64,000 nt of DNA from contig CAZTGD010000006.1 of the NCBI GenBank assembly GCA_964613055.1, forward strand, positions 5,340-69,339, in the 5' to 3' direction. Shown piece after piece: positions 2,475 to 46,181 of this stretch. Origin of the DNA: an uncultured Caldisericales bacterium (GTDB taxonomy: Bacteria > Caldisericota > Caldisericia > JAAYUI01). Positions within the stretch are counted from its first letter, which is position 1; the number at the start of each line of letters is the position of its first letter. Under the pieces are notes generated by a model. That model searched no databases. It worked only from the letters and a program-made list of their open reading frames with translations, and was not told where the DNA came from. A program made the translations under genes and the position numbers.

Positions 2475-2755
2475 GTAAGATAGAAGACAAGCTGTACACA
2501 ACTCGATTCAAGGTCGACGAAACCCCTCATCTGAAGATTGCCGATCAGTCAATCTGCTTGAAATGCCTTAAGGAACACGGACAACCCTGCACCATCTTCT
2601 GCCCGGCAAAGGTCTACATCTGGGAAGAGGATCACATAAATGTCGTGTATGAGGGTTGCCTGGAATGTGGTAGCTGTCGCATCGGATGTCCCTACACCAA
2701 CATCACCTGGAACTTCCCCAGGGGTGGATTTGGGGTGATGTTCAAGCTGGGATAA
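2471..2755 (+). CDS. fixX: Ferredoxin-like protein FixX
   Basis: Cys pattern C..C..C...CP is FixX-like. The ATG overlaps the fixC stop (ATGA) at 2471; the ORF track start at 2447 is probably an over-extension. Confidence 0.8.
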   Translation: MSKIEDKLYTTRFKVDETPHLKIADQSICLKCLKEHGQPCTIFCPAKVYIWEEDHINVVYEGCLECGSCRIGCPYTNITWNFPRGGFGVMFKLG

Positions 2756-2808
2756 TAAAAAATGGCTGACAGTCGATAAACTGATGTCAACCAAAGAAGT
2801 AGGTTAAT

Positions 2809-3801: not shown

Positions 3802-3815
3802 CTCCTAACATAGCT

Positions 3816-4142
3816 GTGCTACTCACTATGATATTAATTCAAGTTGCCTTCAGGTCAAGAATATCTATGTCTTTACCTGTTGACTTTCTTTTTTCACTGA
3901 TTACAATTTATTACATGGAATGGTTTGTTAACAACTTGGGATCAGTAGCTCTTATCGTAATAATCGTTGGTGTTGTGCTTGCCTTACTACTGTATCGTTC
4001 TTCATTGAGATCGCTGGGTTTTGGCAGGAACGTATCTGAGAAGTCTGGTGATGCTCCAAAGGATCATAAGGAAGGAGATAAAAAACTCAAAAACAAATTG
4101 AAGAACATGGCAGAAGAAACTAAATGGGACTGTTACTACTGA
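3816..4142 (+). CDS. Small hypothetical membrane protein. The true start is possibly the internal Met near 3915 (MEWFVNNLGSVALIVIIVGVVLALLLY...).
   Basis: ORF with one clear TM helix followed by a charged Lys/Glu-rich tail. AT-rich context. Confidence 0.35.
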   Translation: MLLTMILIQVAFRSRISMSLPVDFLFSLITIYYMEWFVNNLGSVALIVIIVGVVLALLLYRSSLRSLGFGRNVSEKSGDAPKDHKEGDKKLKNKLKNMAEETKWDCYY

Positions 4143-4294
4143 TCTACTAACCTTATTTTAATCCAACCGCAATTACCGTTAGGTTCAACTGTTAGTTTCA
4201 CAATTTTGTAATAATATCAATAATATTCAATATAATTTAAACTTGACTGTGTGTAATATTTATGTTAATATTTTAAATACTTAAGGAGGTGTGT

Positions 4295-4423
4295 ATGATT
4301 GAGAGAGTTGTCGAATCTGATTTTGTTGGTAAGGGTCCGGTTAATGAGATGTTGAGACTAATTGATGACGATGGTAACTGGCAAAATGGTGAGTTGAAAG
4401 TCAGAATGAGAGTAGTTAATTAA
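4295..4423 (+). CDS. Small ORF (42 aa) with a near-perfect Shine-Dalgarno site
   Basis: TAAGGAGGTGTGT precedes the ATG at 4295. Peptide MIERVVESDFVGKGPVNEMLRLIDDDGNWQNGELKVRMRVVN. Below the 60-aa cutoff of the ORF track. Confidence 0.3.
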   Translation: MIERVVESDFVGKGPVNEMLRLIDDDGNWQNGELKVRMRVVN

Positions 4424-4623
4424 GATGCAGGTTTTGATGATAAAATGAATAAGCAATTCAGTGTTTCTATAAGACAATCAGTTCATCCTAGCATTATAAC
4501 AGATAACCCCATACTAGAAGATGTAGAAAAAAAACGATGATAACGTATACACTTGGACATATTATATTAGAGCAAAGAAGTACTAGATACATAGTGCTCT
4601 ATTCATTTATAAAAACGGCGAAA

Positions 4624-5505
4624 TCAATGTAAGAATAATTGTACTCTCGACCAAACACTCTTGATATTAGCAGACACCTCACCATCCTGCTCAACTATTA
4701 TCTTTCCCTCTGATAGAATCCTTGGCACCGATTCATCATATCGAATGCGACCGACAGACATCACACCATTCTCTTTTGCAACCCGGTCAATCTCAGCCGA
4801 CACTTCTGGATTTATGTCCCACTTGTTGATACACATGGCTACCTTCATTTTGAAGCTGTCTGCTAGCTGGATGACACGTTCCATGTCATGCTTACCCGAC
4901 TGGGTGGGTTCTGTTACCAAGAGAAGCAGGTCAGCCCCGCTTATAGAAGCAATTACAGGACATCCAACGCCAGGGGGTCCATCTACAATCAGGACATCAG
5001 AATTATCATCCCTGGCTTTGACCCTCGCCTTTGACTTGACCAGTGAAACGAGTTTCCCTGAGTTCTCGCCTCCCGCATCCAGCAGGGCGTGGATCATTGG
5101 ACAATATTTCGTATCCGATTCCATCCACACACCCCTCTTCGGGGTGGACAGCTTGATAGCGTTAGCTTTACAAACATAGTCACATAGCGAACAGCCTTCG
5201 CATTTTAGTTCATCAATCCTGTAGATAGTTTTACCACTTTTATCAGTCGATTTGTCAATAGCATCGAATCGACAGTGTTCATAGCAGAGACCACAAAAGG
5301 TGCATTTGTTCTGATCTATTTCTGCCAGCAGACCGCTGTGAAAATCGTGGGTCCGAGTTTTTTCAGGCTTCATCAGGATGTGCATGTTCGGTGCGTCAAC
5401 ATCACAATCCGATATCACAGAGTTTTTTGCTAAGCTAGCAAACGATGCTGATACAGTGGTTTTGCCACTGCCCCCCTTACCACTAATTATTACAAGCTCT
5501 TTCAT
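4624..5505 (-). CDS. MinD/ParA-family P-loop ATPase with an inserted 2x[4Fe-4S] ferredoxin domain
   Basis: Deviant Walker A GKGGSGKTT. Two CxxCxxCxxxC clusters (CTFCGLCYEHC and CEGCSLCDYVC). 4-bp overlap with the upstream paralogue. Confidence 0.8.
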   Translation of the reverse strand: MKELVIISGKGGSGKTTVSASFASLAKNSVISDCDVDAPNMHILMKPEKTRTHDFHSGLLAEIDQNKCTFCGLCYEHCRFDAIDKSTDKSGKTIYRIDELKCEGCSLCDYVCKANAIKLSTPKRGVWMESDTKYCPMIHALLDAGGENSGKLVSLVKSKARVKARDDNSDVLIVDGPPGVGCPVIASISGADLLLLVTEPTQSGKHDMERVIQLADSFKMKVAMCINKWDINPEVSAEIDRVAKENGVMSVGRIRYDESVPRILSEGKIIVEQDGEVSANIKSVWSRVQLFLH

Positions 5506-6332
5506 GCGATACCCTCAATCCTGTTCATCAACTGCCTGAAAAGATCAGCGTATTCTGGGATTGACTGAACGACTGTGTCTCCCATAGAATAAGCCTTGGC
5601 AATCCTCATGTCATTTGGAATTCGAGCGAGTATCGGAATCCCCTTTGCATCACAGAACTTTTCAACCCCATCATCACCAATATCACTACGGTTTATCATA
5701 ACGCCAAAACGTAATGCTCTTCTCTCCAGCAAAGCCACTGATAGTTTCAGGTCATGCAGTCCAAAGGGTGTAGGCTCTGTGACCAACACCACATAGTCAA
5801 CTCCGTCAACAGCCTCTATTGCCGGACATGTGTTGCCGGGTGGTGCGTCTATGATGTTCAATCCATTCACTGAAATGTGTTTTTTGACAGACGATATGAG
5901 TTGGGGAGACATCACATTGCCTATCTTGAGCTGACCCTGAACCAGGGTTGTCTCGCCATTTCTAAATATACTTATCTCTCCTAGTTTCTTGGGGTTGGTA
6001 GTGATCGCGTCATGAGGACAGACAATCCAACCACCACAGCTGTGGCACATTTCATCATATACAATAACCTTTTTTGGGAGAGTGATAATTGCATTATACT
6101 TACAGAAATCACTGCACACGCCACATTTTGTGCAAAGTTGGTCGTTTACTGAAGGGGTCTCTATTGACACATCGGTTTGGTCAATCAAATCACCACCGAT
6201 GAAGAATGCATCGTTGGGCTCCTCGACATCACAGTCGAGAAGGGTAACAGGGGTCTTGGCAATTCTGGCAAGATTACATGCAACAGTGGTCTTACCCGTA
6301 CCGCCTTTTCCAGAAGCTATTGCAATCAACAT
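5502..6332 (-). CDS. MinD/ParA-family P-loop ATPase with an inserted [4Fe-4S] ferredoxin domain (paralogue)
   Basis: GKGGTGKTT Walker A. Cys clusters CTKCGVCSDFC / CHSCGGWIVC. Confidence 0.8.
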   Translation of the reverse strand: MLIAIASGKGGTGKTTVACNLARIAKTPVTLLDCDVEEPNDAFFIGGDLIDQTDVSIETPSVNDQLCTKCGVCSDFCKYNAIITLPKKVIVYDEMCHSCGGWIVCPHDAITTNPKKLGEISIFRNGETTLVQGQLKIGNVMSPQLISSVKKHISVNGLNIIDAPPGNTCPAIEAVDGVDYVVLVTEPTPFGLHDLKLSVALLERRALRFGVMINRSDIGDDGVEKFCDAKGIPILARIPNDMRIAKAYSMGDTVVQSIPEYADLFRQLMNRIEGIA

Positions 6333-6366
6333 ATTAGTGATATGAATATCCTTAAGATGCTTATAC

Positions 6367-6684
6367 TTAATTCAGATTATGCTTTTCAATGGCTTTAGAG
6401 ATAGTGGATTCATCGGTCACGATTATCTTAAGGCCTGCTGACTCCAGCACATCCTGTGCCTTTGGCCCGCAGTTCATACACACCATCACATCAATGCCAG
6501 CTTTTGAAACAGTTTCAGCTGATTTAATACCAACTCCATGAGCCGCACTAAGATTGGCGGTATTGTCGATGATCTTGATCTCTTTGGTTTCAGTATCAAA
6601 AATAAGGAAACTCTTTGCTCTGCCAAACACATCCTCGATGGCTGAGTTCAGATTGTCGCCTGCAGTGGGGAATGCTATCTTCAT
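6367..6684 (-). CDS. NifX/NifB-like dinitrogenase FeMo-cofactor-binding-domain protein
   Basis: 105 aa. MKIAFPTAGDNL...KIIVTD resembles the Nitro_FeMo-Co domain family. It commonly sits beside Fe-S MinD-like ATPases. Confidence 0.7.
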   Translation of the reverse strand: MKIAFPTAGDNLNSAIEDVFGRAKSFLIFDTETKEIKIIDNTANLSAAHGVGIKSAETVSKAGIDVMVCMNCGPKAQDVLESAGLKIIVTDESTISKAIEKHNLN

Positions 6685-6756
6685 ATTTCACCTTCCATGA
6701 TCGATTTTGGTGCACCGACATCAAGTCAGTGCACAGCGCTAGATTATACAGCGATT

Positions 6757-6984
6757 CTATTCGTTGTCGTTTTTCTTATCGGTGGTAGTCTGTTGTGAGC
6801 CCCAGCCAAAGAAGCCACGCCCAAATCCACGTCCTCTACCGAATCCCCGGCCCAGACCTCTTCCCGATCCTCGACCGAAACCATAGGGACGGTCTATAGG
6901 TTTTCCACCATTGCTACACGGTCCAAGCCTTCTACCTGTTCCTGCGCCCCTTCCGTCTGGTCCTTTTCCATCAAAACCTGGCAT
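6757..6984 (-). CDS. Small Gly/Arg-rich protein with RGG/FGRG repeats
   Basis: 75 aa, ...GFGRGSGRGLGRGFGRGRGFGRGFFGWG.... Strong SD (AGGAGGTGAG) immediately upstream on the minus strand. First gene of the operon. Confidence 0.5.
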   Translation of the reverse strand: MPGFDGKGPDGRGAGTGRRLGPCSNGGKPIDRPYGFGRGSGRGLGRGFGRGRGFGRGFFGWGSQQTTTDKKNDNE

Positions 6985-7174
6985 ATCTCACCTCCTAATA
7001 ATTTATCGCAATAACATTCTACGATTGTAAATATTTATTACAATTAAATTGCAATTATTGATTCCATCATCGATCCTAATCAATAGGCATAGCTGTCGAT
7101 CTCAGCTAGCCTAATTGATTTACCTTGAAACCGATTGCCTGCTAAATACTATTGACGGGGAAGGTAGGAAATAT

Positions 7175-11983: not shown

Positions 11984-12979
11984 ATGATTTCACTTGGTAT
12001 TGAAACCTCTTGCGATGATACAGCTGTTGGTATAGTCGATGGTGTAGATATCATTGCGCAGGTCAAATCATCACAGGACAGGGTACACGCCGAGTGGGGT
12101 GGCATCGTTCCTGAACTAGCATCTCGTGCTCATCTGGAAAACATAATCCCAATAATAGATGTTGCCATGAAGGATGCGGGTTTAACAAAGGATGGGATTG
12201 ATATCATCTCTTGTACCTATGGACCTGGATTGGTCGGCTCATTACTGGTTGGCATTGAGACAGCCAAAGCTTTGAGTTATATCTGGAACAAACCACTGGT
12301 CGGGGTTAACCATCTGCGTGGGCATGTCGCTTCAGCGATGCTTGCCAATCCTGAGATGGAACTACCATCGCTCGGATTACTCATCTCAGGCGGACACACT
12401 GAAATAATAATGTTCAATCCTGATTTCACACTCAAGCTCATATCGACAACGAGAGATGACTCTGTTGGTGAGAGTCTCGACAAGTTTGGAAGGGTGCTTG
12501 GTCTTTCATACCCAGCAGGACCTGAGCTGGACAGGATGTCTCTGATTGGTGATTCCTCAAAAGTAGAGTTACCCACGGTCAAACTCAAGGACAATAGTCT
12601 GGATTTCAGCTTCTCAGGTCTCAAAACAGCAGGTATCCGGGCAATACAGCGCTATCCAGAATTACCTAAAAGAGACCTTTCAGCCTCATTTATGAAAGCT
12701 ATTAGCAATCAATTGTTTGATAGATTGATGACAGCTACTGTTCGATACAAACCAGAATCCATTTTCTCTGTTGGTGGGGTTTCAGCAAGCAGGTATATTA
12801 GATCGCGTATAAAGAGTTTCTGTGAAACTATGAATCTTCCATTGCATGTACCACCAACAGAATTATGTACTGATAATGGTGCAATGATTGCGTATTGTGG
12901 TTTACTCTACTACCGATTCGGTATTAAATCAGGTCTTGGTCTTCAACCTATATCCAGACTCCCGCTTGATTCTGTCTGA
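11984..12979 (+). CDS. tsaD: tRNA N6-adenosine threonylcarbamoyltransferase TsaD
   Basis: GIETSCDDTAVGIV signature. Metal-binding H..H motif (VNHLRGH). 331 aa. Confidence 0.9.
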   Translation: MISLGIETSCDDTAVGIVDGVDIIAQVKSSQDRVHAEWGGIVPELASRAHLENIIPIIDVAMKDAGLTKDGIDIISCTYGPGLVGSLLVGIETAKALSYIWNKPLVGVNHLRGHVASAMLANPEMELPSLGLLISGGHTEIIMFNPDFTLKLISTTRDDSVGESLDKFGRVLGLSYPAGPELDRMSLIGDSSKVELPTVKLKDNSLDFSFSGLKTAGIRAIQRYPELPKRDLSASFMKAISNQLFDRLMTATVRYKPESIFSVGGVSASRYIRSRIKSFCETMNLPLHVPPTELCTDNGAMIAYCGLLYYRFGIKSGLGLQPISRLPLDSV

Positions 12980-12995
12980 CCTCAATTACAATATG

Positions 12996-13023
12996 TTGAC
13001 AAGTTAAATTGTAAGGTTAAACT
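12996..13023 (+). promoter_or_regulatory. Candidate sigma70-type promoter for the two-component operon
   Basis: TTGACA (12996-13001), 16-nt spacer, TAAACT (13018-13023). SD AGGAGG lies before the ATG at 13047. Confidence 0.3.
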
Positions 13024-13046
13024 GTTGATAGTCAGGAGGCTCCGAT

Positions 13047-13802
13047 ATGGCCGAAAGAACAAAGAAAGAGAAGAAGAAGATACTGATAATCGAGGATGAG
13101 TACCGCATTGTTGAGTCTCTTAAATTCAACCTCGAGGGTGAGAATTACAGTGTATATCATGCATCACTTGGCAAGGAAGGTTTGGAGCTTTTCAAGAGAC
13201 GAAAACCGGATTTAATTCTCTTAGACCTCATGCTCCCCGAGGGACAGAGTGGAATCGATATACTCAGGCGTATCAGGCAAGAAGATCCGAGTGTACCTGT
13301 GATAATTATAACTGCAAAGACAACTGAGATTGATGAAGTTGTTGGCATGGAGATGGAGGCTGATGATTACATTACCAAACCTTTCTCAATGGCAGTTCTG
13401 AAATCTCATATAAAGAGAAGACTCAAGGTAGCCGAGCAGAAAGGTGCCGCCGAAGAGAAGGAAGAAGAACGCAAGGAAATCACGAACGGCGATATCTATA
13501 TGAACTATGCACAGCGTGAATGCAAAGTTCGAGGCAAACCGGTCAAGCTCGGGTATAAGGAATTTGAGATCCTCTGGTATCTTGCATCCAACTCCAACCA
13601 AGTCTTCAAGCGTGAACAGATCATGGAAGAGGTTTGGAAAGTAGATCAACCACTGGATACAAAAACAGTTGATGTCCATATTAGGTGGATAAGGAAGAAG
13701 ATCGAACCTAAGCCAGAGGCACCCAGATATATTGAAACGGTTAGGGGTGTGGGATACAAATTCTCCTCATCGCATCAGAGCCCACAAAACGATAACAGTT
13801 GA
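13047..13802 (+). CDS. OmpR-family response regulator (receiver + winged-helix)
   Basis: Receiver motifs (ILIIEDE, DLILLDLMLP, ITAKT). C-terminal trans_reg_C-like region. Confidence 0.85.
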   Translation: MAERTKKEKKKILIIEDEYRIVESLKFNLEGENYSVYHASLGKEGLELFKRRKPDLILLDLMLPEGQSGIDILRRIRQEDPSVPVIIITAKTTEIDEVVGMEMEADDYITKPFSMAVLKSHIKRRLKVAEQKGAAEEKEEERKEITNGDIYMNYAQRECKVRGKPVKLGYKEFEILWYLASNSNQVFKREQIMEEVWKVDQPLDTKTVDVHIRWIRKKIEPKPEAPRYIETVRGVGYKFSSSHQSPQNDNS

Positions 13803-15520
13803 GTTTTTGGGTCAGGCTCTTCCTGACCTTCACACTATGCCTGCTATTTACTCTCTTGTTACTTGGGGCATACGTTTATTTTGCTATCTCCAGTAATATT
13901 GCAGAAAGACTTACCATTGATGCTTTTACGCTGAAAGCATGGGTGAAATACGATATAAGTAACGGGTTAGCTGATTCAAGTCTTGCTGATTTAGAGATAT
14001 ACCTTACAGAAAAATATTCGAAAACCATCCCCATGTTTTTGGTAGACGAGGATGGTATCCTGTTCGAAACGAACAGACCTTCTGGTATTCATCCCATTAA
14101 TGATTACCCCGAGCTTGAGGCTACCTGGAACGGGGAAGAGGATAATTCAATAAGGATGATAGATGGCAGGCTGTATGTTGTAGTCGCGAGTCCCATTATT
14201 CATGAAGATGATCATGTTGCCAGCCTCGTCATTAACTACCCTGCTGATGCACTAGTTAACCAGATCAGGGAATTGATTCAACTGATCATTGCAACATTCG
14301 TAACTGCTTTGATTATTGGGGCAATTGTTATTTATTTCACAACACGTTACCAAACAAAACCATTACTCGAGCTCATTGATGATGCCAGAGCAATAAGCGC
14401 TGGTGATTTCGAACGTAAATTCACATTGTTGGGTAATGATGAGATATCTCAGTTGTCACGCGCTCTTCAAATTATGGTCACTAGACTCAAAGCGGCACTC
14501 ACAGTCGCTCAAGAAGAAAAAAGTCGTTTTAATGCTATATTTACTCACATGATGGACGGGTTGATTGTTGCTGACATAGATGGAAGGCTCGTTCACGCAA
14601 ACGCCTCTTTTTTGACAATGTTTGGGTTGTCGCTCCCAGAACTTATTGGATTTGATGTCCGGCAGTGTAACCTTCCAGTTCAGATGAAAGAGAGTATCCT
14701 GTCTGCGGAGGGTGAAACCGTTTTGACAATTGACAAACCCAGCAAAAGAGTGATTCGCGTCAGGACAACAGCCATCGAGGGGGAAAGGGAGCTCGTAGGA
14801 TCGATTACAATCTGTGAGGACATTTCTCGAGAAAAGGAACTTGAGGCATCTGAGAGGGAGTTCACTCAGTACATTAGCCACGAGCTGAAAACACCGCTTA
14901 CATCACTTTCAGCGGCAGTTGAAACCCTTCAATTGATACCAGATGATGACAAGAAGAACAAAAAACGTTTTCTTGCGATCCTACTCGACGACATTGGACG
15001 ATTGAACAATCTCGTAACATCCATCATTGAGTTCCAAAAGAACAGGAATGTGGCTTTCGAACTACAGCGGTTTGGAGCAGTTGACCTTGCAATCGAGATA
15101 CAGGACAAGTACCTGGCGTACGCCTTCAAGAAAGGTGTGAACCTCGATATAAACATCCCAGACGATGAGGTGAAGGTAGTAGCCAATAGGGACAGAATAG
15201 TTCAGGTAATGATGAATGTCACCGACAATGCCATCAGATTTACACCGAAGGGCGGTAGGATAGTCATTGGAGTAAAACCTGGAGAAAACCGTGTTTTATT
15301 CTGGATCGAAGACAGCGGTATCGGCATTCCCAACAATTATATACCCAAACTCGGTGAACGATTTATTAAGATACCCAGGAAGGAACACAAATATGACACA
15401 CAGGTCGGATTGGGATTATCAATATGCATAGATATACTGAATCAACACGGGAGCAAGCTAGAAATTGAGTCGGAGGAGGGCAAGGGATCAAGATTCAGCT
15501 TCTATTTGAAAAAGGGGTAG
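13799..15520 (+). CDS. Sensor histidine kinase (2 TM + periplasmic sensor, HAMP, PAS-like, HisKA, HATPase_c)
   Basis: H-box SHELKTPL. N/G boxes (DNAIRFT, DSGIGIP, GLGLSI). 4-bp overlap with the RR gene. Confidence 0.85.
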   Translation: MSFWVRLFLTFTLCLLFTLLLLGAYVYFAISSNIAERLTIDAFTLKAWVKYDISNGLADSSLADLEIYLTEKYSKTIPMFLVDEDGILFETNRPSGIHPINDYPELEATWNGEEDNSIRMIDGRLYVVVASPIIHEDDHVASLVINYPADALVNQIRELIQLIIATFVTALIIGAIVIYFTTRYQTKPLLELIDDARAISAGDFERKFTLLGNDEISQLSRALQIMVTRLKAALTVAQEEKSRFNAIFTHMMDGLIVADIDGRLVHANASFLTMFGLSLPELIGFDVRQCNLPVQMKESILSAEGETVLTIDKPSKRVIRVRTTAIEGERELVGSITICEDISREKELEASEREFTQYISHELKTPLTSLSAAVETLQLIPDDDKKNKKRFLAILLDDIGRLNNLVTSIIEFQKNRNVAFELQRFGAVDLAIEIQDKYLAYAFKKGVNLDINIPDDEVKVVANRDRIVQVMMNVTDNAIRFTPKGGRIVIGVKPGENRVLFWIEDSGIGIPNNYIPKLGERFIKIPRKEHKYDTQVGLGLSICIDILNQHGSKLEIESEEGKGSRFSFYLKKG

Positions 15521-20543: not shown

Positions 20544-21662
20544 CTAGTCGAAATAATTGTCGTTGGTGATAACGAATGATTCAACCATTGCGTTAAAGGT
20601 GTCTATGTATTCTTCAGAGTCGATCTCGGAAGTTCCATTTATTATTATTGCCCAGTCATCCATTTCTATGGCGTAGTTATACACAAAAGAATCGTTGAAC
20701 GTTGTCCTTGTTGCAACCGCATTGTGTCCTGAGATAACCATTGTTGTGTCTTCGATCGATCCCATACTCATTGCTGTAGTATCTTTTGAACCTGTTACGG
20801 TGATGAATAGCTCGTCAATCTCAAACATGGTTGTCGTTATCTCATCTGTACTGAAGCTGTTAACCTCTGCTGAAGATGGATGCTTGATTGTGAAGAATTC
20901 ACCTTTGTATGTTTTGCCCAGAGTCATTGCATTGGGTCCAACCTCAATCTCCGTTGGCAGTGAAACATTCACATCTATTTCGTTACCCTCTTCATCTTTG
21001 AATGATGCTGAATATTCACCATCTTTGCTGTCGTTGACACCCTCTTTATCCCCCTGATCAGTATCAGGGTACTCCTCTTCATAATCCTCTTCTATAGGTT
21101 CTGTTTCTATTTCGACTGGTTCAAAATCTATAGATTCGGGCATATCCGTATTGGTGACCCTTAGGGATCTTATTATTTGCCTTGTCAGTTCAACGTCCTC
21201 GTCATTTTTACCCGGCTCATCAGTTATTGCCATAAGCACCCATTCATCAAACGGTACAAACGCGGCAACACCGTGGTAGCCATCATTTTCTCCTTCAATC
21301 CACAAAGCTTTATGTCTGCCCAGCTTCATTTCCTTCTCGGAGTAGTTGGATATCTCTGATTTGATATCGCTCTTAACTGAATCAATTGAACCAAGGTCAC
21401 CCATCTTTGATTCCTTCATTGGCATACATATCGCTTCAATCTTAATGCCGTTCTTGCCTTCGAGGGTTACTCCCCCTTCATGCTCCTTAACTTGAAATTC
21501 AGGTGTATAGCCGATTGTCAGAAATCTTCCATCAAAACTATTCCCAAGGTTAGCGGATGCTTCTGGATTTGTGTTAGCGTTTCCCTCATCTCCTCCACAA
21601 CCCACAACCATTCCCACAGCAATCACTGCAACTAATAAAAAGACCGGAATCCTTTTCATCAT
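20544..21662 (-). CDS. Lipoprotein, two modules joined by an acidic linker
   Basis: Lipobox VVGC. ELTRQIIRSLRVT and FNAMVESFVITNDNYFD C-motifs. Confidence 0.55.
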   Translation of the reverse strand: MMKRIPVFLLVAVIAVGMVVGCGGDEGNANTNPEASANLGNSFDGRFLTIGYTPEFQVKEHEGGVTLEGKNGIKIEAICMPMKESKMGDLGSIDSVKSDIKSEISNYSEKEMKLGRHKALWIEGENDGYHGVAAFVPFDEWVLMAITDEPGKNDEDVELTRQIIRSLRVTNTDMPESIDFEPVEIETEPIEEDYEEEYPDTDQGDKEGVNDSKDGEYSASFKDEEGNEIDVNVSLPTEIEVGPNAMTLGKTYKGEFFTIKHPSSAEVNSFSTDEITTTMFEIDELFITVTGSKDTTAMSMGSIEDTTMVISGHNAVATRTTFNDSFVYNYAIEMDDWAIIINGTSEIDSEEYIDTFNAMVESFVITNDNYFD

Positions 21663-21728
21663 TTCTCCTCTCTGAAGTCAGCTTTTAATCCAGCCAACCA
21701 GAACGTTTTATCGGGAAGCGATTATATA

Positions 21729-22709
21729 TCACCTGGAACGGAATTGCAAATGATCAATTATCCTAATGCTGTATAAAGCTGATCCCGCTGACAAGATCTC
21801 TTTTTTGCTATCAAGACTTTTGGCTACTGCTGAAATGTATCCACCCTCAAGTGGTATCATAATTGATATTGTCTTTTCAGACTCTTTCAGTGTTTCAGTC
21901 CATATACTATCAAACACACCGATATTGATCACTTCAATTGCAATAGCACCGAGGTTCACATCATCCCAGTTCTGAATGCTCATGAGTCTTTCAATATCGA
22001 AAGGATCCATCATCCAATCATCAATCCAATCGATGAAAATCTCAAAACCATCACAATCAATACTCAGTTTGTTGTAACTATTCTCAATGACTGTCCCATC
22101 CACATTTATCTGTAATGCTTCGGTGCTTACCACATTATCGGAAAATGTGAGTTCTCTGTTATGGTCAAATTGTTCGTATTGAGGACCTTCAAGATCAAAA
22201 GAATAGTCCTCTTCAATAATTCTCAAAGACATGACAATCTCCCTGGCAAGCATGAATTCATCTGTAGAGAAGTTTGTTACAGTTGCTATCATCTCCCATC
22301 CATCTCTTGGGATCATGACGGATATAAATGGCCACTCAAACTCATTTTTCGTGTAGGCAAACAAGGCAGAATCTTCACCGAGTTTCACTTCAGACAACTC
22401 ATCCCAGTAATCCTCACCATTGTGCCAAAGACTATAAAGGTCACCTTCCCTACGGTCACTGTTCCAGTTTGAGTAAGCTTCAATTTGAAGATCAGTGTCT
22501 TTTGATGACAGTATTACACCTGGATTCTTTTCGGTTATGCTGAGGGGTGTGAATCCTGCCGGATAATCAAGAGAAAAGAACTCACCATTATAAGTTTTTT
22601 CCAACAAAGGTTTGTCTTGCTCAGAGACACCATTGGATTCATCACTTGAGCAAGAAATTATAACCGGCAATATAAGCGCTGTAGCAAGAAGTAATCTAAT
22701 GGTTTTCAT
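21729..22709 (-). CDS. Lipoprotein, two modules
   Basis: Lipobox IISC. YNGEFFSLDYPAGF start. MLAREIVMSLRIIEEDYSFD C-motif. Confidence 0.55.
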   Translation of the reverse strand: MKTIRLLLATALILPVIISCSSDESNGVSEQDKPLLEKTYNGEFFSLDYPAGFTPLSITEKNPGVILSSKDTDLQIEAYSNWNSDRREGDLYSLWHNGEDYWDELSEVKLGEDSALFAYTKNEFEWPFISVMIPRDGWEMIATVTNFSTDEFMLAREIVMSLRIIEEDYSFDLEGPQYEQFDHNRELTFSDNVVSTEALQINVDGTVIENSYNKLSIDCDGFEIFIDWIDDWMMDPFDIERLMSIQNWDDVNLGAIAIEVINIGVFDSIWTETLKESEKTISIMIPLEGGYISAVAKSLDSKKEILSAGSALYSIRIIDHLQFRSR

Positions 22710-23238
22710 GAAATTGTATCGTCTCGACTATTCTATGCCCGAGTTCAATATCATCTGGCACCTGTGGAGTCAATTCTACCTTAAGAAGTTTGCCATCGAG
22801 AGGGATGGTGTATTCGATTATCTCCACTATACTCATTCCAGATATCCCTCCAGGGATTGCCATCTTGACAAACAATGACCTCACTCCATCAACCTTAACG
22901 TCTTTCATCTCACAATTCATAGCTTTAGATGAAATATCGTTGTACTGAGCATAAAGATTGGTCGTATCTCCCTTAGTCATGCCACTAATGCTTAGCATTG
23001 AAAACCTCAACATTGGACTGATATTGCCAATATCTTTAATGACTATGTCTGCTTCTCCAGACTCAGATACTTGCATTATGGACGGATACTCGACACTGAA
23101 ATATTGATTATCATAGATATTGTCAAAACTCGGAGAACCACAACTTACAAGCAGTGTCAAGGATACCATAATACCTACCATTATCTTTCGAGAAATTATC
23201 ATAGAATATTCAATACACCCAATCAGCAGATCTGTCAA
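22696..23238 (-). CDS. Lipoprotein, single module (the true start is probably the internal Met before the signal peptide)
   Basis: Lipobox LVSCGS. YFSVEYPSIMQV start. LGHRIVETIQF end. Confidence 0.5.
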   Translation of the reverse strand: MTDLLIGCIEYSMIISRKIMVGIMVSLTLLVSCGSPSFDNIYDNQYFSVEYPSIMQVSESGEADIVIKDIGNISPMLRFSMLSISGMTKGDTTNLYAQYNDISSKAMNCEMKDVKVDGVRSLFVKMAIPGGISGMSIVEIIEYTIPLDGKLLKVELTPQVPDDIELGHRIVETIQFHENH

Positions 23239-35862: not shown

Positions 35863-36706
35863 TTATACAAATGAGATAACCGGAGAATATGTGAGAATAG
35901 TCGATGCCATTTCAGTTCTAGTTTGCACATCACAGATGATGTGGTTGTCTTGGATAATAATATACTCCAGTGTTCTTTCATTGATGAGACTTATACTCAA
36001 CAGTGGTGGCATGATTGATTGGATAAACGCCCTTACTCTCAAATCTATTCCCGTCGACCACCCAGCCGTGCTGTTCAACCATGCTTTATCGCTTGATAAA
36101 GGGATTCAAGGCATTGTTTTCATTGTGATTGTTTATCTCTGCCTGTTCGTCACTGTAAGCATGGTTGAATCTCTACTCTATCCATATGTATTGGATTCTG
36201 TGAGAAACACTCTGCCAGATTTTGGCTGGGATTTCTGGAGGAAATGGAAGAAATTCGCACTATTCTTTATCATGTTCACTCCGATCTGGATACTGTCTGG
36301 ACTACTTGGTTACACAGCAACGGTTATCAGCCAAGGTACAAACTTTCCAACAATTGTTGCTGAACTTATAAAGTTCACCTTGATGTCTGTCCCACTGATA
36401 ATCCTTATCCCCGCGAGATTCTATTACTCTGATGGATACGGTTTTCTTAGATCGATAATGGAGTCACTTTTAAACATACAGAAATATTTTAAGTCAACCA
36501 TCCTGATACTAATTCCTTCAGGATGCATATATGTATTTTTGGTTCAGCTTACGCAGAATTCAATGACTGGCCTACAAACGTTATTGTCTTTTTCACCATT
36601 ATTGTATGCATTGGGTGCTCTTTTCTGGTTTGCCTGGGCTGTTTCAGTATTTTACACCGTTAGAATTTATCAAAACATAAATAGAAACACAGGAGGTTAT
36701 TCATGA
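35819..36706 (+). CDS. Hypothetical polytopic membrane protein
   Basis: Multiple hydrophobic helices. Start uncertain. Confidence 0.4.
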   Translation: MTSQYKNCIILYIITYTNEITGEYVRIVDAISVLVCTSQMMWLSWIIIYSSVLSLMRLILNSGGMIDWINALTLKSIPVDHPAVLFNHALSLDKGIQGIVFIVIVYLCLFVTVSMVESLLYPYVLDSVRNTLPDFGWDFWRKWKKFALFFIMFTPIWILSGLLGYTATVISQGTNFPTIVAELIKFTLMSVPLIILIPARFYYSDGYGFLRSIMESLLNIQKYFKSTILILIPSGCIYVFLVQLTQNSMTGLQTLLSFSPLLYALGALFWFAWAVSVFYTVRIYQNINRNTGGYS

Positions 36707-37578
36707 CAAATTTCTGGCATAGAACACTTAACAGAATGATACCACGTCACGGCGCTGGTCTGTTTGGAGTCGGTTCGGCACTTTCGGCTTCTCTTTACAT
36801 CTCGGTTCTGTTTGCTGAGATAGTATCCACTTTCATCGAGAGTAATAGCGTCTCTATGATCGAAACACTGATCACCTTTGTTACCACTCCAACCATAGAA
36901 GGTGCAATAACTATTCTTATCTTCTCAGTATTGTGGATATTTCTGGGTGCGATAGCACTTGCGGGTGGTTGTCGCTATCTGATTGGATGTGTTGATCCAA
37001 AGCATATAGCCCAAAGAACCTTCTTTAACGGTATTCGATACTACTGGGTGAAAATGCTTAGATACACTGTATTCTTGACCTTCGGTGGACTTTTCTTCCT
37101 AATGCTCTTCTGGATACTCTGGCAGTTGATCGCTGGTATGGTAGGAGTGTTCGTTGTTCTTATTATTGTACTTTTTGTTATCCTGGCAACTGCCTTCTGG
37201 TCAAAACTGGCATTCACTCCTTACTTCATGGTTTCGGGGATGGGCCTGTTCCCCTCTATTGTAAAATCTTGGGGTGCGACAAACAAAAGGATTTGGTCCA
37301 CAACGATACTCAGGTTGTGTCTGGTGATATTCATTTCCATGCCAGTCATGTTTAGATTCACCATAGAACCAGAAGTCATGGTTCCGTCTCTTTCTGTCTG
37401 GCCCTTCGTTGCACTCATTGTATTCGGTTACATCGAACTCATTGTGGTGAGAGGGTACCAGGAATGGCAGGAGAAGGAAAAACTTCCAATGGTTTCATCC
37501 AAGTTTGTAAAGAGTGATGTGCAGATACTGGATATATATGATTCAAATGTAAACGGACCCAGAAGCATGGAATACTAG
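36703..37578 (+). CDS. Hypothetical polytopic membrane protein
   Basis: Several TM helices. ATGA overlap with the upstream gene. Confidence 0.45.
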   Translation: MTNFWHRTLNRMIPRHGAGLFGVGSALSASLYISVLFAEIVSTFIESNSVSMIETLITFVTTPTIEGAITILIFSVLWIFLGAIALAGGCRYLIGCVDPKHIAQRTFFNGIRYYWVKMLRYTVFLTFGGLFFLMLFWILWQLIAGMVGVFVVLIIVLFVILATAFWSKLAFTPYFMVSGMGLFPSIVKSWGATNKRIWSTTILRLCLVIFISMPVMFRFTIEPEVMVPSLSVWPFVALIVFGYIELIVVRGYQEWQEKEKLPMVSSKFVKSDVQILDIYDSNVNGPRSMEY

Positions 37579-37631
37579 CAGATCTAAATCATGACTTGAG
37601 AGTTATCTGTTTGCATGTAAGCTGTAAGTTG

Positions 37632-38108
37632 ATGAGAATTCTTCTAGTTTATGCACTTTGTTTCTTCGCTTTGCTGATATCATGTGACATTCAAACAGAT
37701 TTAAAGCGGGTTGATCTAGATTTCTTCTCTTTTATTTCTCCTGCATCGTTGAATATGGTTGCTAGTGGTGAGGGTGTCTGTCGTTTTGCAGGGAACATTG
37801 GCAGTATAGATCTTTCCTGGTCCTTTGACCAGTTCTCAAGGAAAAACATGCCTGCAAGGGAATCAGGAAGAAAACAACCGGGTGAGGAGATAATAGAATC
37901 CACCAAGGCTACGCTTGGTGACAGGCACATCTGGTGGAACAAAACCCGCATTAACAATATAATAACTGTTAGAATGACAATCCCACTCGACTCAGGCTAT
38001 CTCAAAGCTGAGGGAGTTGCAACTGAAGACAACATTGAACAGATTGAAAGATCTTTAAGGAGTTTAGTAATAAATGATGAGAATTACTTCATTGATAATT
38101 TCGATTAG
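37632..38108 (+). CDS. Lipoprotein, paralogous family
   Basis: Start adjusted to the Met giving signal peptide + lipobox LISC. C-terminal IEQIERSLRSLVINDENYFIDNFD family motif. Confidence 0.5.
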   Translation: MRILLVYALCFFALLISCDIQTDLKRVDLDFFSFISPASLNMVASGEGVCRFAGNIGSIDLSWSFDQFSRKNMPARESGRKQPGEEIIESTKATLGDRHIWWNKTRINNIITVRMTIPLDSGYLKAEGVATEDNIEQIERSLRSLVINDENYFIDNFD

Positions 38109-38679
38109 CCTTATCCTCATTTCCTTAGGTGTTATTACAGGATGTGATAGCTCCGAAGGCAGATTCAGGTATGAAGGTCCATTCTACTCTCTGGAAATGA
38201 GTGACAGTTGGCATATGCACGACTTTGGTGGTGATAACCTGAAGATACACGGATACTACAGGTGTGTCACGTTCAGCAAGAGACCCATTCAGCTTCGGGA
38301 ACTGTCTGAGATAAACCAACTGGAATATGCAATCACATGCGCGAGTATATTTGATTCAACACTCACCCAGGGGGATTTCGAAGCCATTGAGATACCCTCG
38401 CAGATAGCTGGCATAACAATTGTCGAGAAGAAGCAAATAGAGATAGACGGGGTACCCGCCCGGTGGCTCGAGTGCGAAACCACATTTGAAGGTAAACAGA
38501 ACGCGTCTGTTCTTCTGGATGTACCACTGAACAATGGATACATTCAGATTGATTTCTTCGGACCCAAGGGTGATGAGAGCCTGCAAACAGAGGCAAGGCG
38601 TATCGTTAGGTCACTTACAATATCCAATCCAGATTATTTTATTGAGAATACTCAAAAGGAAACATGGAGGACGGAATGA
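38074..38679 (+). CDS. Lipoprotein, paralogous family
   Basis: Lipobox ITGC. FYSLEMSDSWHM start. ARRIVRSLTISNPDYFIE end. Confidence 0.55.
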   Translation: MMRITSLIISISLILISLGVITGCDSSEGRFRYEGPFYSLEMSDSWHMHDFGGDNLKIHGYYRCVTFSKRPIQLRELSEINQLEYAITCASIFDSTLTQGDFEAIEIPSQIAGITIVEKKQIEIDGVPARWLECETTFEGKQNASVLLDVPLNNGYIQIDFFGPKGDESLQTEARRIVRSLTISNPDYFIENTQKETWRTE

Positions 38680-39632
38680 TGAATCTATTAATTGCATACC
38701 CAACAGACGATGAAATGAGAGTCGGTTTTTCCGAAAACAATGACAGCAAACCTGCTTTTCTCTCTATTGGCTATCCTACATCTCATGAGGACTTTGAAAA
38801 TGCAATCAAAGAGGCTTTCAGCGAGATGGGCAATCCAGTATTTGATATTGGTGTGGCATGTTACGGCATGACTCAAAAGACCGACAAACCTTCTATCGAG
38901 TTGACATCCGATGTTATTAAGTCGCTTTCAGCCTGTGAGTATGGAATGGACCCTTCCAATATGACCAGTGTTCTCATCCATGCCCTTAACCCCAACAAGG
39001 CAATACTCGCCTATCCACTAACATATGATTGCCTGTCACCGATTGCTAGACTGTCTGGTATTCCTGAGATTGAAAGGCGCATGGTTGCCAGAACCATGGA
39101 CCACCTGATGGCGGGAGAAGGCAAAAAGACATTGACCGTATATCTCTCGCAAGGTGAAATGTCTGTATGCGCTCAGGATAAGGGCAAGGTTATTGATATC
39201 ACAAACTCCTATGATGGAGAGGGCCCGATGACTCCAACCAGGTCTGGTTTCTTCCAGCAGAAGTGCGTCTATTCCATGGCATTTTCCGGGAAGTACAGCA
39301 GAGAAGAGCTCCTCGATAAGATAAGAGTCAGAGGTGGTCTGCTTGCTTATCTGGGTACATCAGACCTAGATGAAGTATATGGGATGATTGATGGTGATGA
39401 TGAGAAAGCAAAGCTCATCTATGATGCGATGTTATACACCTTGTTCAAGGAGATCGGAAGCAAATCAGCTTGGTTGTGTGGTGATTTTGAGAGTATAATC
39501 CTGACTGGACCTCTTTCTGACAATAAGAGACTTGTTGATGATATTAAGGCTGGCATCACGAAACTTGGTAACGTTTCTGTCAATAATGATCTCTGTGTGG
39601 CAACATTTCTTAGAAGCCAGGGGATAATTTAA
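38664..39632 (+). CDS. Butyrate-kinase-family (ASKHA) paralogue with a degenerate ATP phosphate-1 motif
   Basis: C-terminal two-thirds align well to butyrate kinases (KGKVIDITNSYDGEGPMTPTRSG, FSGKYSREELLDKIRVRGGLLAYLGTSD, ILTGPLS). The N-terminal NPGSTSTK position reads YPTDDEMR instead. Confidence 0.6.
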   Translation: MEDGMMNLLIAYPTDDEMRVGFSENNDSKPAFLSIGYPTSHEDFENAIKEAFSEMGNPVFDIGVACYGMTQKTDKPSIELTSDVIKSLSACEYGMDPSNMTSVLIHALNPNKAILAYPLTYDCLSPIARLSGIPEIERRMVARTMDHLMAGEGKKTLTVYLSQGEMSVCAQDKGKVIDITNSYDGEGPMTPTRSGFFQQKCVYSMAFSGKYSREELLDKIRVRGGLLAYLGTSDLDEVYGMIDGDDEKAKLIYDAMLYTLFKEIGSKSAWLCGDFESIILTGPLSDNKRLVDDIKAGITKLGNVSVNNDLCVATFLRSQGII

Positions 39633-39635
39633 TCA

Positions 39636-40343
39636 ATGAAAGAACCGAGAATAACCATCTTTGCAGGTCCGGTTGGCGCTGGTAAAACAGAGATTTCAAT
39701 CAATTACGCTTTAAAGCTGAAACAGTTTGGAACAGAGGTAGCACTCATAGACTACGATGTCGTAAAACCTTACATCCGAGTCAGAGATGCCGCTGGTATT
39801 CTGTCGGAAAATGGTCTGACAGTGCTGATGCCTGATGGGAAGGTCGCCTTTGCTGATATGCCCATTGTACCTCAAAAGATTTATCAATGGATTGCTGATG
39901 ATTCCAGACATCTTGTTATGGATGTTGGTGGAGACAAGCAGGGATCAACAGCGTTGGGTCAGATAATGCCAAGGCTTTCAGAGGATGAATATGAATTCTG
40001 TCTTGTCATAAACCCATACAGACCATTCACCAATTCCATTGCCGGCATAAAGCGTTTGGCAGAAGAGGTCTCTCTAGGCGCGCGCACCAAATTTGACTCT
40101 ATCGTTGGCAATCCTCATGTAAAGGAAATGACTACAATCAAGGACTTTATGGACGGTCTCAGGCTCATCCGAGAGGCTTCAGCTGAGATGAATCTCCCAA
40201 TCAAGTTCATAGGTGTATCCGAGGGTCTGTATCCACAGGTTAAGGTGGACAGTGTCGATGAGGAGCTACTGCCCATGCAGATGTTTGTTACATATCCATG
40301 GCAGGACAGATGTGAGTGTGTCAATTGGATATACAAGGGGTAG
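39636..40343 (+). CDS. P-loop NTPase (SIMIBI/G3E-like), function unknown
   Basis: Walker A GPVGAGKT. VMDVGGD Walker-B-like segment. No clear NKxD. Begins 4 bp after the buk-like gene. Confidence 0.5.
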   Translation: MKEPRITIFAGPVGAGKTEISINYALKLKQFGTEVALIDYDVVKPYIRVRDAAGILSENGLTVLMPDGKVAFADMPIVPQKIYQWIADDSRHLVMDVGGDKQGSTALGQIMPRLSEDEYEFCLVINPYRPFTNSIAGIKRLAEEVSLGARTKFDSIVGNPHVKEMTTIKDFMDGLRLIREASAEMNLPIKFIGVSEGLYPQVKVDSVDEELLPMQMFVTYPWQDRCECVNWIYKG

Positions 40344-40387: not shown

Positions 40388-40846
40388 ATGAATAGGGTAA
40401 TTGTGTCAATCATACTAGTGACAATTCTTGCAACACTTTTCCTATCTGTATCATGTGGGTGTAATTTGAAAGATGATGATATCAATTCCGACTTAGAAGT
40501 ATTTGCTGAGAAAAGATTGAATCATTTATTAAAAGGTTTCCGTACCGCAGGTTGGAAACTGGGTGAAGATATTACAAAAGAGATAGCAATCGATGGTATG
40601 TGTAACATGATTAACAGTTTTTGTGATATCTTTGGATCGGATTCACATAAGAGTGGGTGTTACAAGCCAATATTTGATGACTGGATACAGTATAAATTAT
40701 ATGAAATCTATATATTAGATGATCGTAGTAGCAGTGATGACATAGGTTTGGAGAGGCTTAGAAGTAGACATCCTGAATTGTATGACAGCGATAGCTGTAA
40801 TGACTGGGAAAGGCTTTTAATACATGAAAGCAAGAAAAAATACTAA
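40388..40846 (+). CDS. Small Cys-rich lipoprotein (AT-rich region)
   Basis: Signal peptide + lipobox VSCGC. Six further Cys. GGAGG SD. Confidence 0.45.
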   Translation: MNRVIVSIILVTILATLFLSVSCGCNLKDDDINSDLEVFAEKRLNHLLKGFRTAGWKLGEDITKEIAIDGMCNMINSFCDIFGSDSHKSGCYKPIFDDWIQYKLYEIYILDDRSSSDDIGLERLRSRHPELYDSDSCNDWERLLIHESKKKY

Positions 40847-41094
40847 TATTTTCAGAGACATTATCCCAGTACCTTTGCCAATACCAGAACCATACCCACC
40901 AGCACAGATTCCACCATGGACGAGACAAGTAGTTACAAGCTAAATTCTGGACATATCAGGGTGGTTTTATTTGGTTGGGTTGTTGCATAGAATACATTTT
41001 AATATTGATAAGTATTTAATCTTATTCATAGAATTCTATTATGCTTGAGAAATCAAGCTGGGAGGATATAATCACCATATGGAGGTAGCAGAAA

Positions 41095-42705
41095 ATGGAG
41101 AGAGCAAGAACAACAATAGCAGTTTTAATTGCCCTACTATTAGTATCTGTTGTATTTACATGCTGTACAATGTCTGGTGACAATGGTGTGGATACTGAAG
41201 ATGACCATGTAAGAATAGCCAAATGGGTCACCATTGACGGTGATGATTATGATCCTAATACCGATTGTTATGCTCCTTTAATTGATAATGGGGCATCAAT
41301 TCAGTACGTGTATGTTGATTCCAATGGCACAATAAATGCGATGGTGAATATTGGTCATACAGTTTTTGTAAGAAGGGTGGGTAACGATTGGGTGGACATC
41401 AAAGGCACACCGTTGGATAAAATAATGGAAAGTACAGAATATGATATACTCAAACATCAATCACCTCCCTTTTTAAATTGTCATGCCGATCAATTAAAGA
41501 TTGATAGTAATGGTTATCCCCATATTCTATCTCAGTACCTTTTGCTAAACGGTGAATCGTATTATTCTAGGGGGTATGTTAAATCTAACGGTTCAGACCT
41601 GTTATATATGAAATGGAATGGTACTGATTGGGTCAATATTTACGGAGAGAAGATATATAATAATAATATAACAATTTCAAGACTACATGTAGGCGACGGT
41701 AATGGTTATTGCGAAGTGTGTCGAATGCAACTAGACAGCGAAGATCGACCACATATATACTGGGAAAGAAAACGTGATATTGAAAAAGATACTATGGACA
41801 AATCTTATTACATTCATTGGGATGGGGACAAATGGCTTACAGCATCTGGTGCAGAATATCAAGATAATAGAAACGATTCTTTAGTGATAAGTGGTAAAAT
41901 TAATTATGGTGTGAATGTTGAGTTGTTTTTAGGAATTGATGATTCGCCACATATATTCATGGTATTGGAAAAATACTATGAAGAGGGTGAAGGCAAGGCA
42001 AAAAATATTTACTATACTGATGAATTACCTGTTTGTTATTTACACTATGAGAATGGAGCTTGGAGGGATATTGATGGCAATATATTCAAACACAGCTGTA
42101 CAAGTAACCCTATAATTTATGAAACTAGATTATTTTACGGTGATTATTGTTCATTTTACAAAAGCGATTCAGACAAACCTTTCATCCTTTGGACAGATCA
42201 AATATATCGACCGTTTAAGCTTGGATTAGTTCAGGGTTTAGATAATGATTGGGTCACGTTGAAAAGTGAATTGTGGAATAAGGATGTTGAAAATCATATT
42301 TTGGATATATACAAGGGTAAAACAAATGTTCTGTTATATGATTACTTCAAACCAATAATTCGAGAAGATAATAGAGAAAATATACATATTGCATGGTGCA
42401 AAATAACATCTGATACTAATTACGACGAATTATTATCAATTCATTATTTAAGATATAACGGCGTTGACTGGTTGGATTTTGAAGGAAGAAAGATTAACTT
42501 AGATAAAAATATTGATGGAGCAGTAATATCTGAAAAAGATGTAACATGGAATGATGATAATGGTCATCACACGTTGGATGTAAAAGATTTTCACCTTTAC
42601 ATTGATAAGGAAAACAAGCCCCATCTTATATGGTTGTTCTCTGATCTAAACAAGTGTAGATATAATAATACCCACAACTACATTAAGGGGATTCCTGTTG
42701 AGTGA
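41095..42705 (+). CDS. Secreted lipoprotein with at least six ~65-aa repeats (beta-propeller-like)
   Basis: Repeated G.DWV.I.G motif (NDWVDIKGTPL, TDWVNIYGEKI, DKWLTASGAEY, GAWRDIDGNIF, NDWVTLKSELW, VDWLDFEGRKI). Signal peptide with Cys. Confidence 0.5.
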   Translation: MERARTTIAVLIALLLVSVVFTCCTMSGDNGVDTEDDHVRIAKWVTIDGDDYDPNTDCYAPLIDNGASIQYVYVDSNGTINAMVNIGHTVFVRRVGNDWVDIKGTPLDKIMESTEYDILKHQSPPFLNCHADQLKIDSNGYPHILSQYLLLNGESYYSRGYVKSNGSDLLYMKWNGTDWVNIYGEKIYNNNITISRLHVGDGNGYCEVCRMQLDSEDRPHIYWERKRDIEKDTMDKSYYIHWDGDKWLTASGAEYQDNRNDSLVISGKINYGVNVELFLGIDDSPHIFMVLEKYYEEGEGKAKNIYYTDELPVCYLHYENGAWRDIDGNIFKHSCTSNPIIYETRLFYGDYCSFYKSDSDKPFILWTDQIYRPFKLGLVQGLDNDWVTLKSELWNKDVENHILDIYKGKTNVLLYDYFKPIIREDNRENIHIAWCKITSDTNYDELLSIHYLRYNGVDWLDFEGRKINLDKNIDGAVISEKDVTWNDDNGHHTLDVKDFHLYIDKENKPHLIWLFSDLNKCRYNNTHNYIKGIPVE

Positions 42706-46095: not shown

Positions 46096-46181
46096 GGGCA
46101 GTTAGCGAAGTGGTCAAACGCGGCAGACTGTAAATCTGTTGACATACGTCTTCGGAGGTTCGAATCCTTCACTGCCCACCA
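46096..46181 (+). tRNA. tRNA-Tyr (anticodon GTA), class II with long variable arm, CCA encoded
   Basis: Acceptor stem GGGCAGT/ACTGCCC. D-loop with GG. Anticodon loop CTGTAAA (U33, GTA, A37). Variable stem GAC-ATAC-GTC. T-loop TTCGAAT. 3' ACCA. Confidence 0.85.

Follow-up and report, generated by a model that had tools for sequence, protein, structure and literature searches.

A catalytically degenerate butyrate kinase paired with an uncharacterised SIMIBI-class NTPase in Caldisericales as a derived form of a widespread fermentation module

The stretch of DNA studied here, below called the window, comprises 64,000 nucleotides of contig CAZTGD010000006.1 from an uncultured Caldisericales bacterium, originates from the metagenome of a microbial mat and harbours on its forward strand two adjacent genes, the products of which we call A and B. 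A is a catalytically degenerate paralogue of butyrate kinase (Buk), and B is a P-loop NTPase of the SIMIBI class from an uncharacterised family. The A-B pair derives from a widespread module that consists of a canonical Buk, a B protein and a 2-oxoacid:ferredoxin oxidoreductase (OFOR), and the coupling of the two genes is ancestral. We consider it probable, with considerable room for doubt, that A is a dead and repurposed descendant of the buk2 copy that adjoins B in other organisms and was kept as the partner of B, which itself would be a conserved SIMIBI NTPase of the fermentation operon.

A preliminary description of this region had listed two open reading frames (ORFs) on the + strand, 38664-39632 (322 aa) and 39636-40343 (235 aa), and both could be confirmed, as could the peptides quoted from them (YPTDDEMR, KGKVIDITNSYDGEGPMTPTRSG, FSGKYSREELLDKIRVRGGLLAYLGTSD, GPVGAGKT and VMDVGGD). 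The 322 aa correspond to the longest ORF, which begins at 38664. However, the ATG at 38676 overlaps the stop codon of the preceding lipoprotein gene Y as ATGA and is found 5 nt behind a GGAGGA Shine-Dalgarno sequence, so that this is probably the true start of A, giving a protein of 318 aa (38676..39632, +), the length also chosen by public gene callers. The gene for B (39636..40343, +) follows after 3 nt (TAA tca ATG); the tight coupling proposed before therefore stands, while the gap of 4 bp given for it does not.

The NCBIfam butyrate kinase models match A with E-values of 4e-46 to 6e-48, and the best solved relative is Buk2 of Thermotoga maritima (PDB 1SAZ/1X9J, E 2e-33). The AlphaFold2 model of A (pLDDT 93) shows the two-domain ASKHA fold and can be superposed over its whole length on Buk2 with a TM score of 0.83-0.85, which bears out the butyrate kinase similarity noticed earlier. 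Like genuine butyrate kinases (EC 2.7.2.7, PF00871), with which it shares 26-31% identity, A possesses R138, R193, the GPxxPxRSG loop and the C-terminal helices, but it is about 35 residues shorter. Its scores stay below the cutoffs of both specific models (157.6 bits for TIGR02707, cutoff 289.1; 163.8 bits for NF002834, cutoff 222), whereas the Pfam threshold for PF00871 (Acetate_kinase) is passed with 33.5 against 22 bits, in residues 153-294 only. A search for homologues of A finds 19 proteins of 317-335 aa with E-values of 1e-62 or below, followed by canonical Buks of 355-360 aa from E ~1e-37 on. This A clade reaches down to 38% identity and is rare: among 1.84 billion representatives it forms about four clusters at 50% identity, after which the scores drop from more than 350 to about 190 bits, and a metagenome scan for A-type loci turned up only four. 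The automatic JGI annotation labels A as 'butyrate kinase', a label which would wrongly credit such genomes with butyrate kinase capacity.

The A-type proteins were aligned with 54 canonical Buks from the studied loci. The PHOSPHATE-1 motif PGSTSTK (NPGSTSTK), intact in all 54 canonical proteins except for a K to A change in four distal copies from Atribacterota, is replaced by YP(T/G/S)xxx(I/M) in the A-type proteins and reads YPTDDEMR in the window. In the catalytic Asp region IVDPV has become AY---PLTY, the Asp being gone through a deletion of three residues, and the His region (FHALN) is variable and ends with LD. PHOSPHATE-2 (HxGGG-IS) corresponds to YLSxxEIS, in the window to YLSQGEMS with an insertion of one residue; every A-type protein has H160Y and G162S and has lost G163. 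ADENOSINE (LTGGxA) has changed to TGPLS, LTGPLS in the window, and P283 is invariant in the A-type proteins, compared to a glycine in 47 of the 54 canonical Buks. The Mg-binding Glu of PGEDEM is absent, as its segment is replaced by non-conserved sequence, and the Arg of the RGG motif is also gone in every member. The Asp of IVDPV and the Glu of PGEDE are the equivalents of AckA Asp148 and Glu384. In total 27 positions with at least 95% invariance in canonical Buks are lost, among them N12, S15, T16, T18, R66, D117, H160, G162, G163 and E312. The substrate-side loop EGPMTPTRSGFF, R138 and R193 are kept. Judged from these residues, A is predicted to be without acyl-phosphate/ATP phosphotransfer activity. 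The loss of NPGSTSTK, from which a non-catalytic or repurposed ASKHA protein had been suspected, proved to be real and common to all homologues of the A clade, none of which has an intact GSTSTK, and the losses in PHOSPHATE-2, of the ADENOSINE glycine, of the catalytic Asp and of the Mg-binding Glu point in the same direction. A second, milder motif variant occurs in the distal Buk copies of the Atribacterota just mentioned (L011 4765, L015 4784, L020 4806, L035 715), in which Lys has given way to Ala (PGSTSTA), HALN reads HALS and five residues are inserted in ADENOSINE (TGNGAGDKGAL).

The degeneration of A is accompanied by conservation of a different kind. In comparison to a variant with 92% identity the ratio of non-synonymous to synonymous substitution rates (dN/dS) amounts to 0.16 in A and 0.32 in B, compared to 0.10 in Y and 0.36 in X (the lipoprotein gene in front of Y), and 20 positions are newly invariant in the A-type proteins, including H147, Y160, S162, E165, T192, F196, F197, Q199, C201, Y203 and R221. 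Because of the low dN/dS and these new invariant residues we regard A as a maintained, repurposed pseudoenzyme, neither an artefact nor a decaying gene. No pseudoenzyme of the acetate/butyrate kinase family was found described in the literature searched, and A appears to be the first one.

B contains an intact Walker A (GPVGAGKT), a DxD (D39, D41), DVGGD (96-100), N126/R129 and N159. Its fold, in which a Walker A is combined with an Asp behind beta-2 and with DxxG as switch II, places it in the SIMIBI class, in agreement with the earlier assignment as a SIMIBI-type P-loop NTPase of unclear family. No family among the curated (Pfam, NCBIfam) or solved ones could be assigned to B; all matches cover the P-loop region only and fail to reach the cutoffs. 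Its Walker A (F-A-G-P-V-G-A-G-K-T, family consensus GxFGSGKT) is without the signature Lys of MinD/ParA, and CbiA (22.5 bits, cutoff 25.4) and ParA (20.9 bits, cutoff 27.1) are not reached, so that B does not belong to MinD/ParA/Mrp. Membership in the G3E group (HypB/UreG/MeaB/CobW), to which a relationship had been considered, is not supported either, because B has DVGGD and not ExxG, has no NKxD and matches cobW with an E-value of only 0.1 (12.6 bits, cutoff 20.7). SRP54/FtsY/FlhF do not come into question either, since DTAGR and TKxD are missing and the score is below cutoff. B thus differs from the SIMIBI families compared (SRP54/FtsY/FlhF, MinD/ParA/Mrp, Get3/ArsA, BioD and G3E) by an invariant set of its own: GxxGxGKTE, E19, N23, DxD (39, 41), P45-Y46, R48, R50, D96-V-G-G-D100, N126, R129-P130, N159 and W222. 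Unlike in Mrp, CooC and HypB, these invariants include no conserved Cys or His for the handling of metals or Fe-S clusters, and a role as Fe-S or metal chaperone was therefore dropped.

The B family is by no means restricted to the relatives of the window. A word-indexed search finds 956 proteins, and the family is present in more than 585 species genomes from Atribacterota, Bacillota, Halanaerobiales, Zixibacteria, Ignavibacteria, Anaerolineae, Deltaproteobacteria, Acidobacteriota, Calditrichota and others. All ten examined B copies that are paired with an A-type protein retain all invariants of the family, and B of the window is predicted from these residues to be still catalytically competent. 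In addition, all ten have W85, R113 and K163 and carry a tail of the form (N/S)WIYKG at the C-terminus, which is missing from most other B proteins. These clade-specific changes would be consistent with a co-adaptation of B to A.

The genomic context of B was studied in 80 species-representative genomes, which represent the best matches to B of the window and not a random sample; genes in these loci were called with a simple longest-ORF procedure. In 69 of the 80 genomes an OFOR alpha gene is located within 2.5 kb downstream of B on the same strand, usually behind a delta subunit of 72-77 aa with two [4Fe-4S] clusters and in front of the beta and gamma subunits. In 28 genomes B directly follows the gene for a canonical Buk; the median distance is 14 nt, and 4-nt ATGA overlaps are frequent. 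The typical order is buk1-ptb-buk2-B-ferredoxin-OFOR alpha/beta/gamma, where ptb encodes phosphotransbutyrylase (PTB), and the gene for A occupies the same position as the Buk preceding B in these other phyla. Three loci with neither the OFOR nor the Buk feature have the layout of Halanaerobiales/Bacillota, in which B is found just 5' of a PAS-sigma-54 activator, followed by dehydrogenase-ptb-dehydrogenase-buk-ferredoxin-OFOR. A sigma-54 activator, BkdR, is also known from the bkd operon of Bacillus subtilis. From its OFOR and Buk context in the 80 genomes we conclude that B is a regular, unannotated member of operons which turn amino-acid-derived 2-oxoacids into acids with a gain of ATP. Like other ptb-buk/OFOR (VOR-type) clusters, the loci of the wider B family combine amino-acid dehydrogenase, PTB, Buk, ferredoxin, OFOR and sometimes the PAS-sigma-54 activator. 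The module of the window differs from these clusters by its degenerate Buk, by two added lipoproteins and by the absence of any OFOR or PTB gene within the 64 kb.

In all 12 A-type loci (window, L001, L002, L008/L101, L009, L088, L090, L092, L096, L097, L100) the genes follow the constant order X-Y-A-B; A and B are spaced by -11 to +8 nt, the flanks otherwise differ, and the identities are 38-55%. The conservation of both genes as neighbours, which had been named as a check for the pair, is hence given in 12 independent loci. The view of a two-gene module holds for the pairing of A with B; the real unit consists of four genes, and the coupling is ancestral: in many phyla B normally stands between a fully canonical Buk and OFOR genes. 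X (37632..38108, +), the first gene of this core, encodes a small lipoprotein of 158 aa from the ATG at 37632 with a signal peptide up to the lipobox LLISC; its longest ORF begins at 37596, and the public gene calls have 158 aa. Y (38074..38679, +), which overlaps X by 35 nt, encodes a paralogous small lipoprotein of 201 aa with the lipobox VITGC. The profiles of X and Y find each other with E-values of 1e-8 to 1e-14, and neither protein matched a Pfam family. X has a homologue in the corresponding place of each A-type locus, the Y homologues detected in the protein database are all encoded directly 5' of an A-B pair, and four loci contain a third X/Y-type copy, each copy having the lipobox cysteine. 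Among the approximately 100 loci examined the X/Y family is confined to the vicinity of A-B, except for weak paralogues at another place in the window: the tandem ORFs 20544-21662, 21729-22709 and 22696-23238 (20544-23238, -) match the X/Y profiles with E-values of 8e-7 to 3e-4, so that a lipoprotein family expanded in this lineage seems to be present in the genome.

An OFOR alpha gene could be detected by the scan with profile hidden Markov models neither in the window nor in nine A-type loci, and none is annotated in L100 and L101. Five A-type loci have buk(353 aa)-DUF2268-ptb-Glu/Leu-type dehydrogenase immediately in front of the module, while the 64 kb of the window and three related loci have neither a canonical Buk nor an OFOR nearby. 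The gene for DUF2268, a predicted Zn-dependent protease and thus an uncommon component of a ptb-buk operon, is regularly found between buk and ptb in the Caldisericia-type clusters (L088 3536-4408, L090 3545-4414, L096 1752-2633).

The origin of A was studied with a neighbour-joining tree, in which the A clade is monophyletic in 100 of 100 bootstraps and placed on a very long branch (distance 1.9, compared to 0.5-0.8 among canonical Buks). A and the B-adjacent Buk copy have the same indel state, 'EGP'. The canonical Buk that is kept in A-type loci shows the distal-type '-GP' indel and groups in the tree with the distal copies of other phyla. Furthermore, one metagenome-assembled genome (MAG) of the Caldisericia (L019), the class to which, together with the Caldisericales, the closest labelled relatives of the window are assigned as MAGs, still has the canonical order buk-ptb-buk-B. 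In this locus (L019 5651-7235) and in that of a Calditrichota MAG (L034 8887-11082) buk-ptb-buk-B is followed by a gene for a protein of 250-280 aa and then by ftsZ, and OFOR genes are missing.

From these data the following scenario could be drawn for a dead Buk as partner of B. In a small Caldisericia-type lineage the buk2 copy would have lost nucleotide binding and catalysis while keeping the fold and the EGPMTPTRSGFF loop, the OFOR genes would have become unlinked from B in the same lineage, and two paralogous lipoprotein genes would have joined, resulting in the fixed and translationally coupled X-Y-A-B. Like other SIMIBI proteins, B may switch from one nucleotide state to another, and it may act by direct binding to its Buk-fold partner. 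This partner would be the active Buk at the acyl-phosphate-to-ATP step in canonical operons, and in the A-type lineage the dead Buk, serving as a ligand-binding or adaptor subunit and leaving the nucleotide chemistry to B alone. We infer a direct interaction of A with B, and by extension of Buk2 with B, because the Buk fold is the only partner still adjoining B after all other changes and because B co-varies in a lineage-specific manner. A more far-reaching proposal, which we put forward tentatively and rate as possible but well short of probable, is that the B family represents an unrecognised accessory NTPase needed for or regulating the OFOR-PTB-Buk route via contact to the Buk fold, and that X-Y-A-B is a signalling or adaptor device in which the dead kinase has kept the binding of an acyl ligand and passes its state to B and to the envelope lipoproteins.

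Several observations weigh against this interpretation. B is linked to OFOR more often than to Buk (69 compared to 30 of 80 genomes), and in many genomes B and OFOR occur together without a nearby Buk, so Buk may not be the primary partner of B. The tree places A with neither Buk copy, and a grouping of A with the adjacent-type copies received 0 of 100 bootstraps, the placement being subject to long-branch effects; the descent from buk2 is deduced from the gene position and one indel. Fusions of A with B or of Buk with B were searched for and none was found. Two candidates were rejected: P0224, a protein of 597 aa obtained in the representative search, consists of a canonical Buk to which part of another Buk C-terminal domain is fused, i.e. 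a tandem duplication within one ORF, and the B ORF of 456 aa in L016 carries an N-terminal extension without a Pfam domain and is probably over-extended. Finally, the role of the co-transcribed lipoproteins X and Y is left unexplained by a model built on A and B.

The frequent linkage of B to OFOR, its strongest association across phyla, also speaks for a different explanation, according to which the adjacency is a relic: A and B would not interact, B would serve the unlinked OFOR or another target, and A would have acquired an unrelated new role, for example in a heteromer that regulates active Buk1. Many pseudoenzymes heteromerise with and regulate their active paralogue, five A-type loci hold a canonical Buk1 in the cluster as a possible partner of A, and Buk2 of T. 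maritima is oligomeric, judged by multi-chain PDB entries and established knowledge. However, an A-B spacing kept within -11 to +8 nt in 12 loci in spite of differing flanks and 38-55% identity speaks against a mere relic, the clade-specific residues and the tail of B were gained only where B is paired with A, and in the window and the three related loci mentioned above there is no canonical Buk or OFOR nearby. We therefore consider the relic unlikely, although it deserves to be kept in mind. More improbable in our view is that A is still an active kinase or phosphotransferase with a non-canonical site, either with migrated catalytic residues or with B supplying the nucleotide in a split enzyme. 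The retention of R138 and R193, the strong purifying selection and the about 20 new invariant and largely polar residues, which cluster in the sequence around the former PHOSPHATE-2 and His regions (H147, Y160, S162, E165, T192, Q199, C201, Y203, R221), would fit an active A; yet every member is devoid of all three ASKHA nucleotide motifs and has also lost the catalytic Asp, the Arg of RGG and the Glu that binds Mg, and canonical operons combine B with a complete Buk, so that B need not provide a nucleotide site.

That X-Y-A-B is an envelope or lipoprotein-handling system unrelated to fermentation, in which B (nearest folds FlhF and FtsY) and A (an ASKHA protein like FtsA and MreB) target or position the co-encoded lipoproteins, seems very improbable to us. 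Practically no weight is left for an artefact, i.e. a mis-called start or an alignment error hiding the GSTSTK, or for A being a decaying pseudogene. The longest-ORF start at 38664 is indeed probably four codons too early, but the N-terminal strand of A aligns position for position with the NPGSTSTK of every canonical Buk, no other start restores the motif, and its loss is common to all homologues of the A clade. Decay is excluded by the dN/dS of 0.16, by a reading frame that is intact across the A clade and by the clade-wide conservation.

The route from OFOR via phosphotransbutyrylase and butyrate kinase to butyrate and branched-chain fatty acids is central for energy conservation in anaerobes including gut Clostridia, and it is usually drawn as a pathway of three enzymes. 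The results presented here reveal a conserved P-loop NTPase inside the OFOR-ptb-buk operons of many phyla, which is not mentioned in the papers searched, and the A-B pair directs attention to a so far unstudied accessory factor in the fermentation of amino acids. In one lineage the NTPase and a kinase-dead Buk stayed side by side after the other pathway genes had become unlinked. This represents a natural 'separation of function', which speaks for a joint action of the NTPase and the Buk fold as such, and it offers an experimental handle. Pseudoenzymes as partners of active enzymes are known in general (reviewed in PMC10211241 and PMC5106787), and like these A has a fold that was maintained by selection after the loss of catalysis and is encoded together with an active protein; in contrast to pairs of a pseudoenzyme and its paralogue, the partner of A is an NTPase of a different fold class and not an active paralogue. 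The OFOR-ptb-buk loci of gut Clostridia have been described without mention of an NTPase (10.64898/2026.01.29.702580). In the papers searched nothing relevant could be found on an NTPase in ptb-buk-OFOR clusters, on T. maritima TM1755-1758 or on the butyrate metabolism of Caldisericia, and the A-B pair was not described in them either, in line with the preliminary description, in which the module was not recognised as a described system.

Directly 5' of X two overlapping genes for multi-pass membrane proteins of about 271-295 aa and 291 aa are located (35891..37578, +), with a 4-nt overlap at 36703-36706. They match no Pfam family. Homologues are found at the same place in L008, L100 and L101 and not in the other A-type loci; this co-directional pair, kept only in the sub-lineage of the window, may represent extra operon members there. 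The flanks of the A-B pair had been described as lipoprotein genes and an AT-rich block, and this was found as well: X and Y lie upstream, and downstream of B an ORF for a lipoprotein-like protein of 152 aa and one for a BNR-like repeat protein of 536 aa follow in a low-GC stretch (40388-42705), the GC content being 0.34-0.36 at 41-43 kb of the window. These ORFs are absent from the syntenic L008, L100 and L101, where a gene of 190-194 aa with a molybdopterin-oxidoreductase domain comes after B, so that region 40388-42705 looks like a local replacement or insertion.

With the PADLOC models no match at E-values of 0.01 or below was obtained for A, B, X or Y, and an identity of the module as a defence system was dropped. 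In L096 a CBASS-like pair, consisting of a DUF6602 protein and a SMODS cyclase with AGS_C sensor, is inserted between the amino-acid dehydrogenase and X (5080-7133) and splits buk-ptb-dehydrogenase from X-Y-A-B. The syntenic module of L101 is flanked by a Type ISP restriction-modification gene with an HTH/Peptidase_M78 pair (519-4815) and by a second methyltransferase-Mrr gene (12439-14199), and this neighbourhood appears to be a hotspot for the insertion of defence genes. A single tRNA-Tyr (GTA) at 46096-46181 is the sole Rfam/ARAGORN match in the window.

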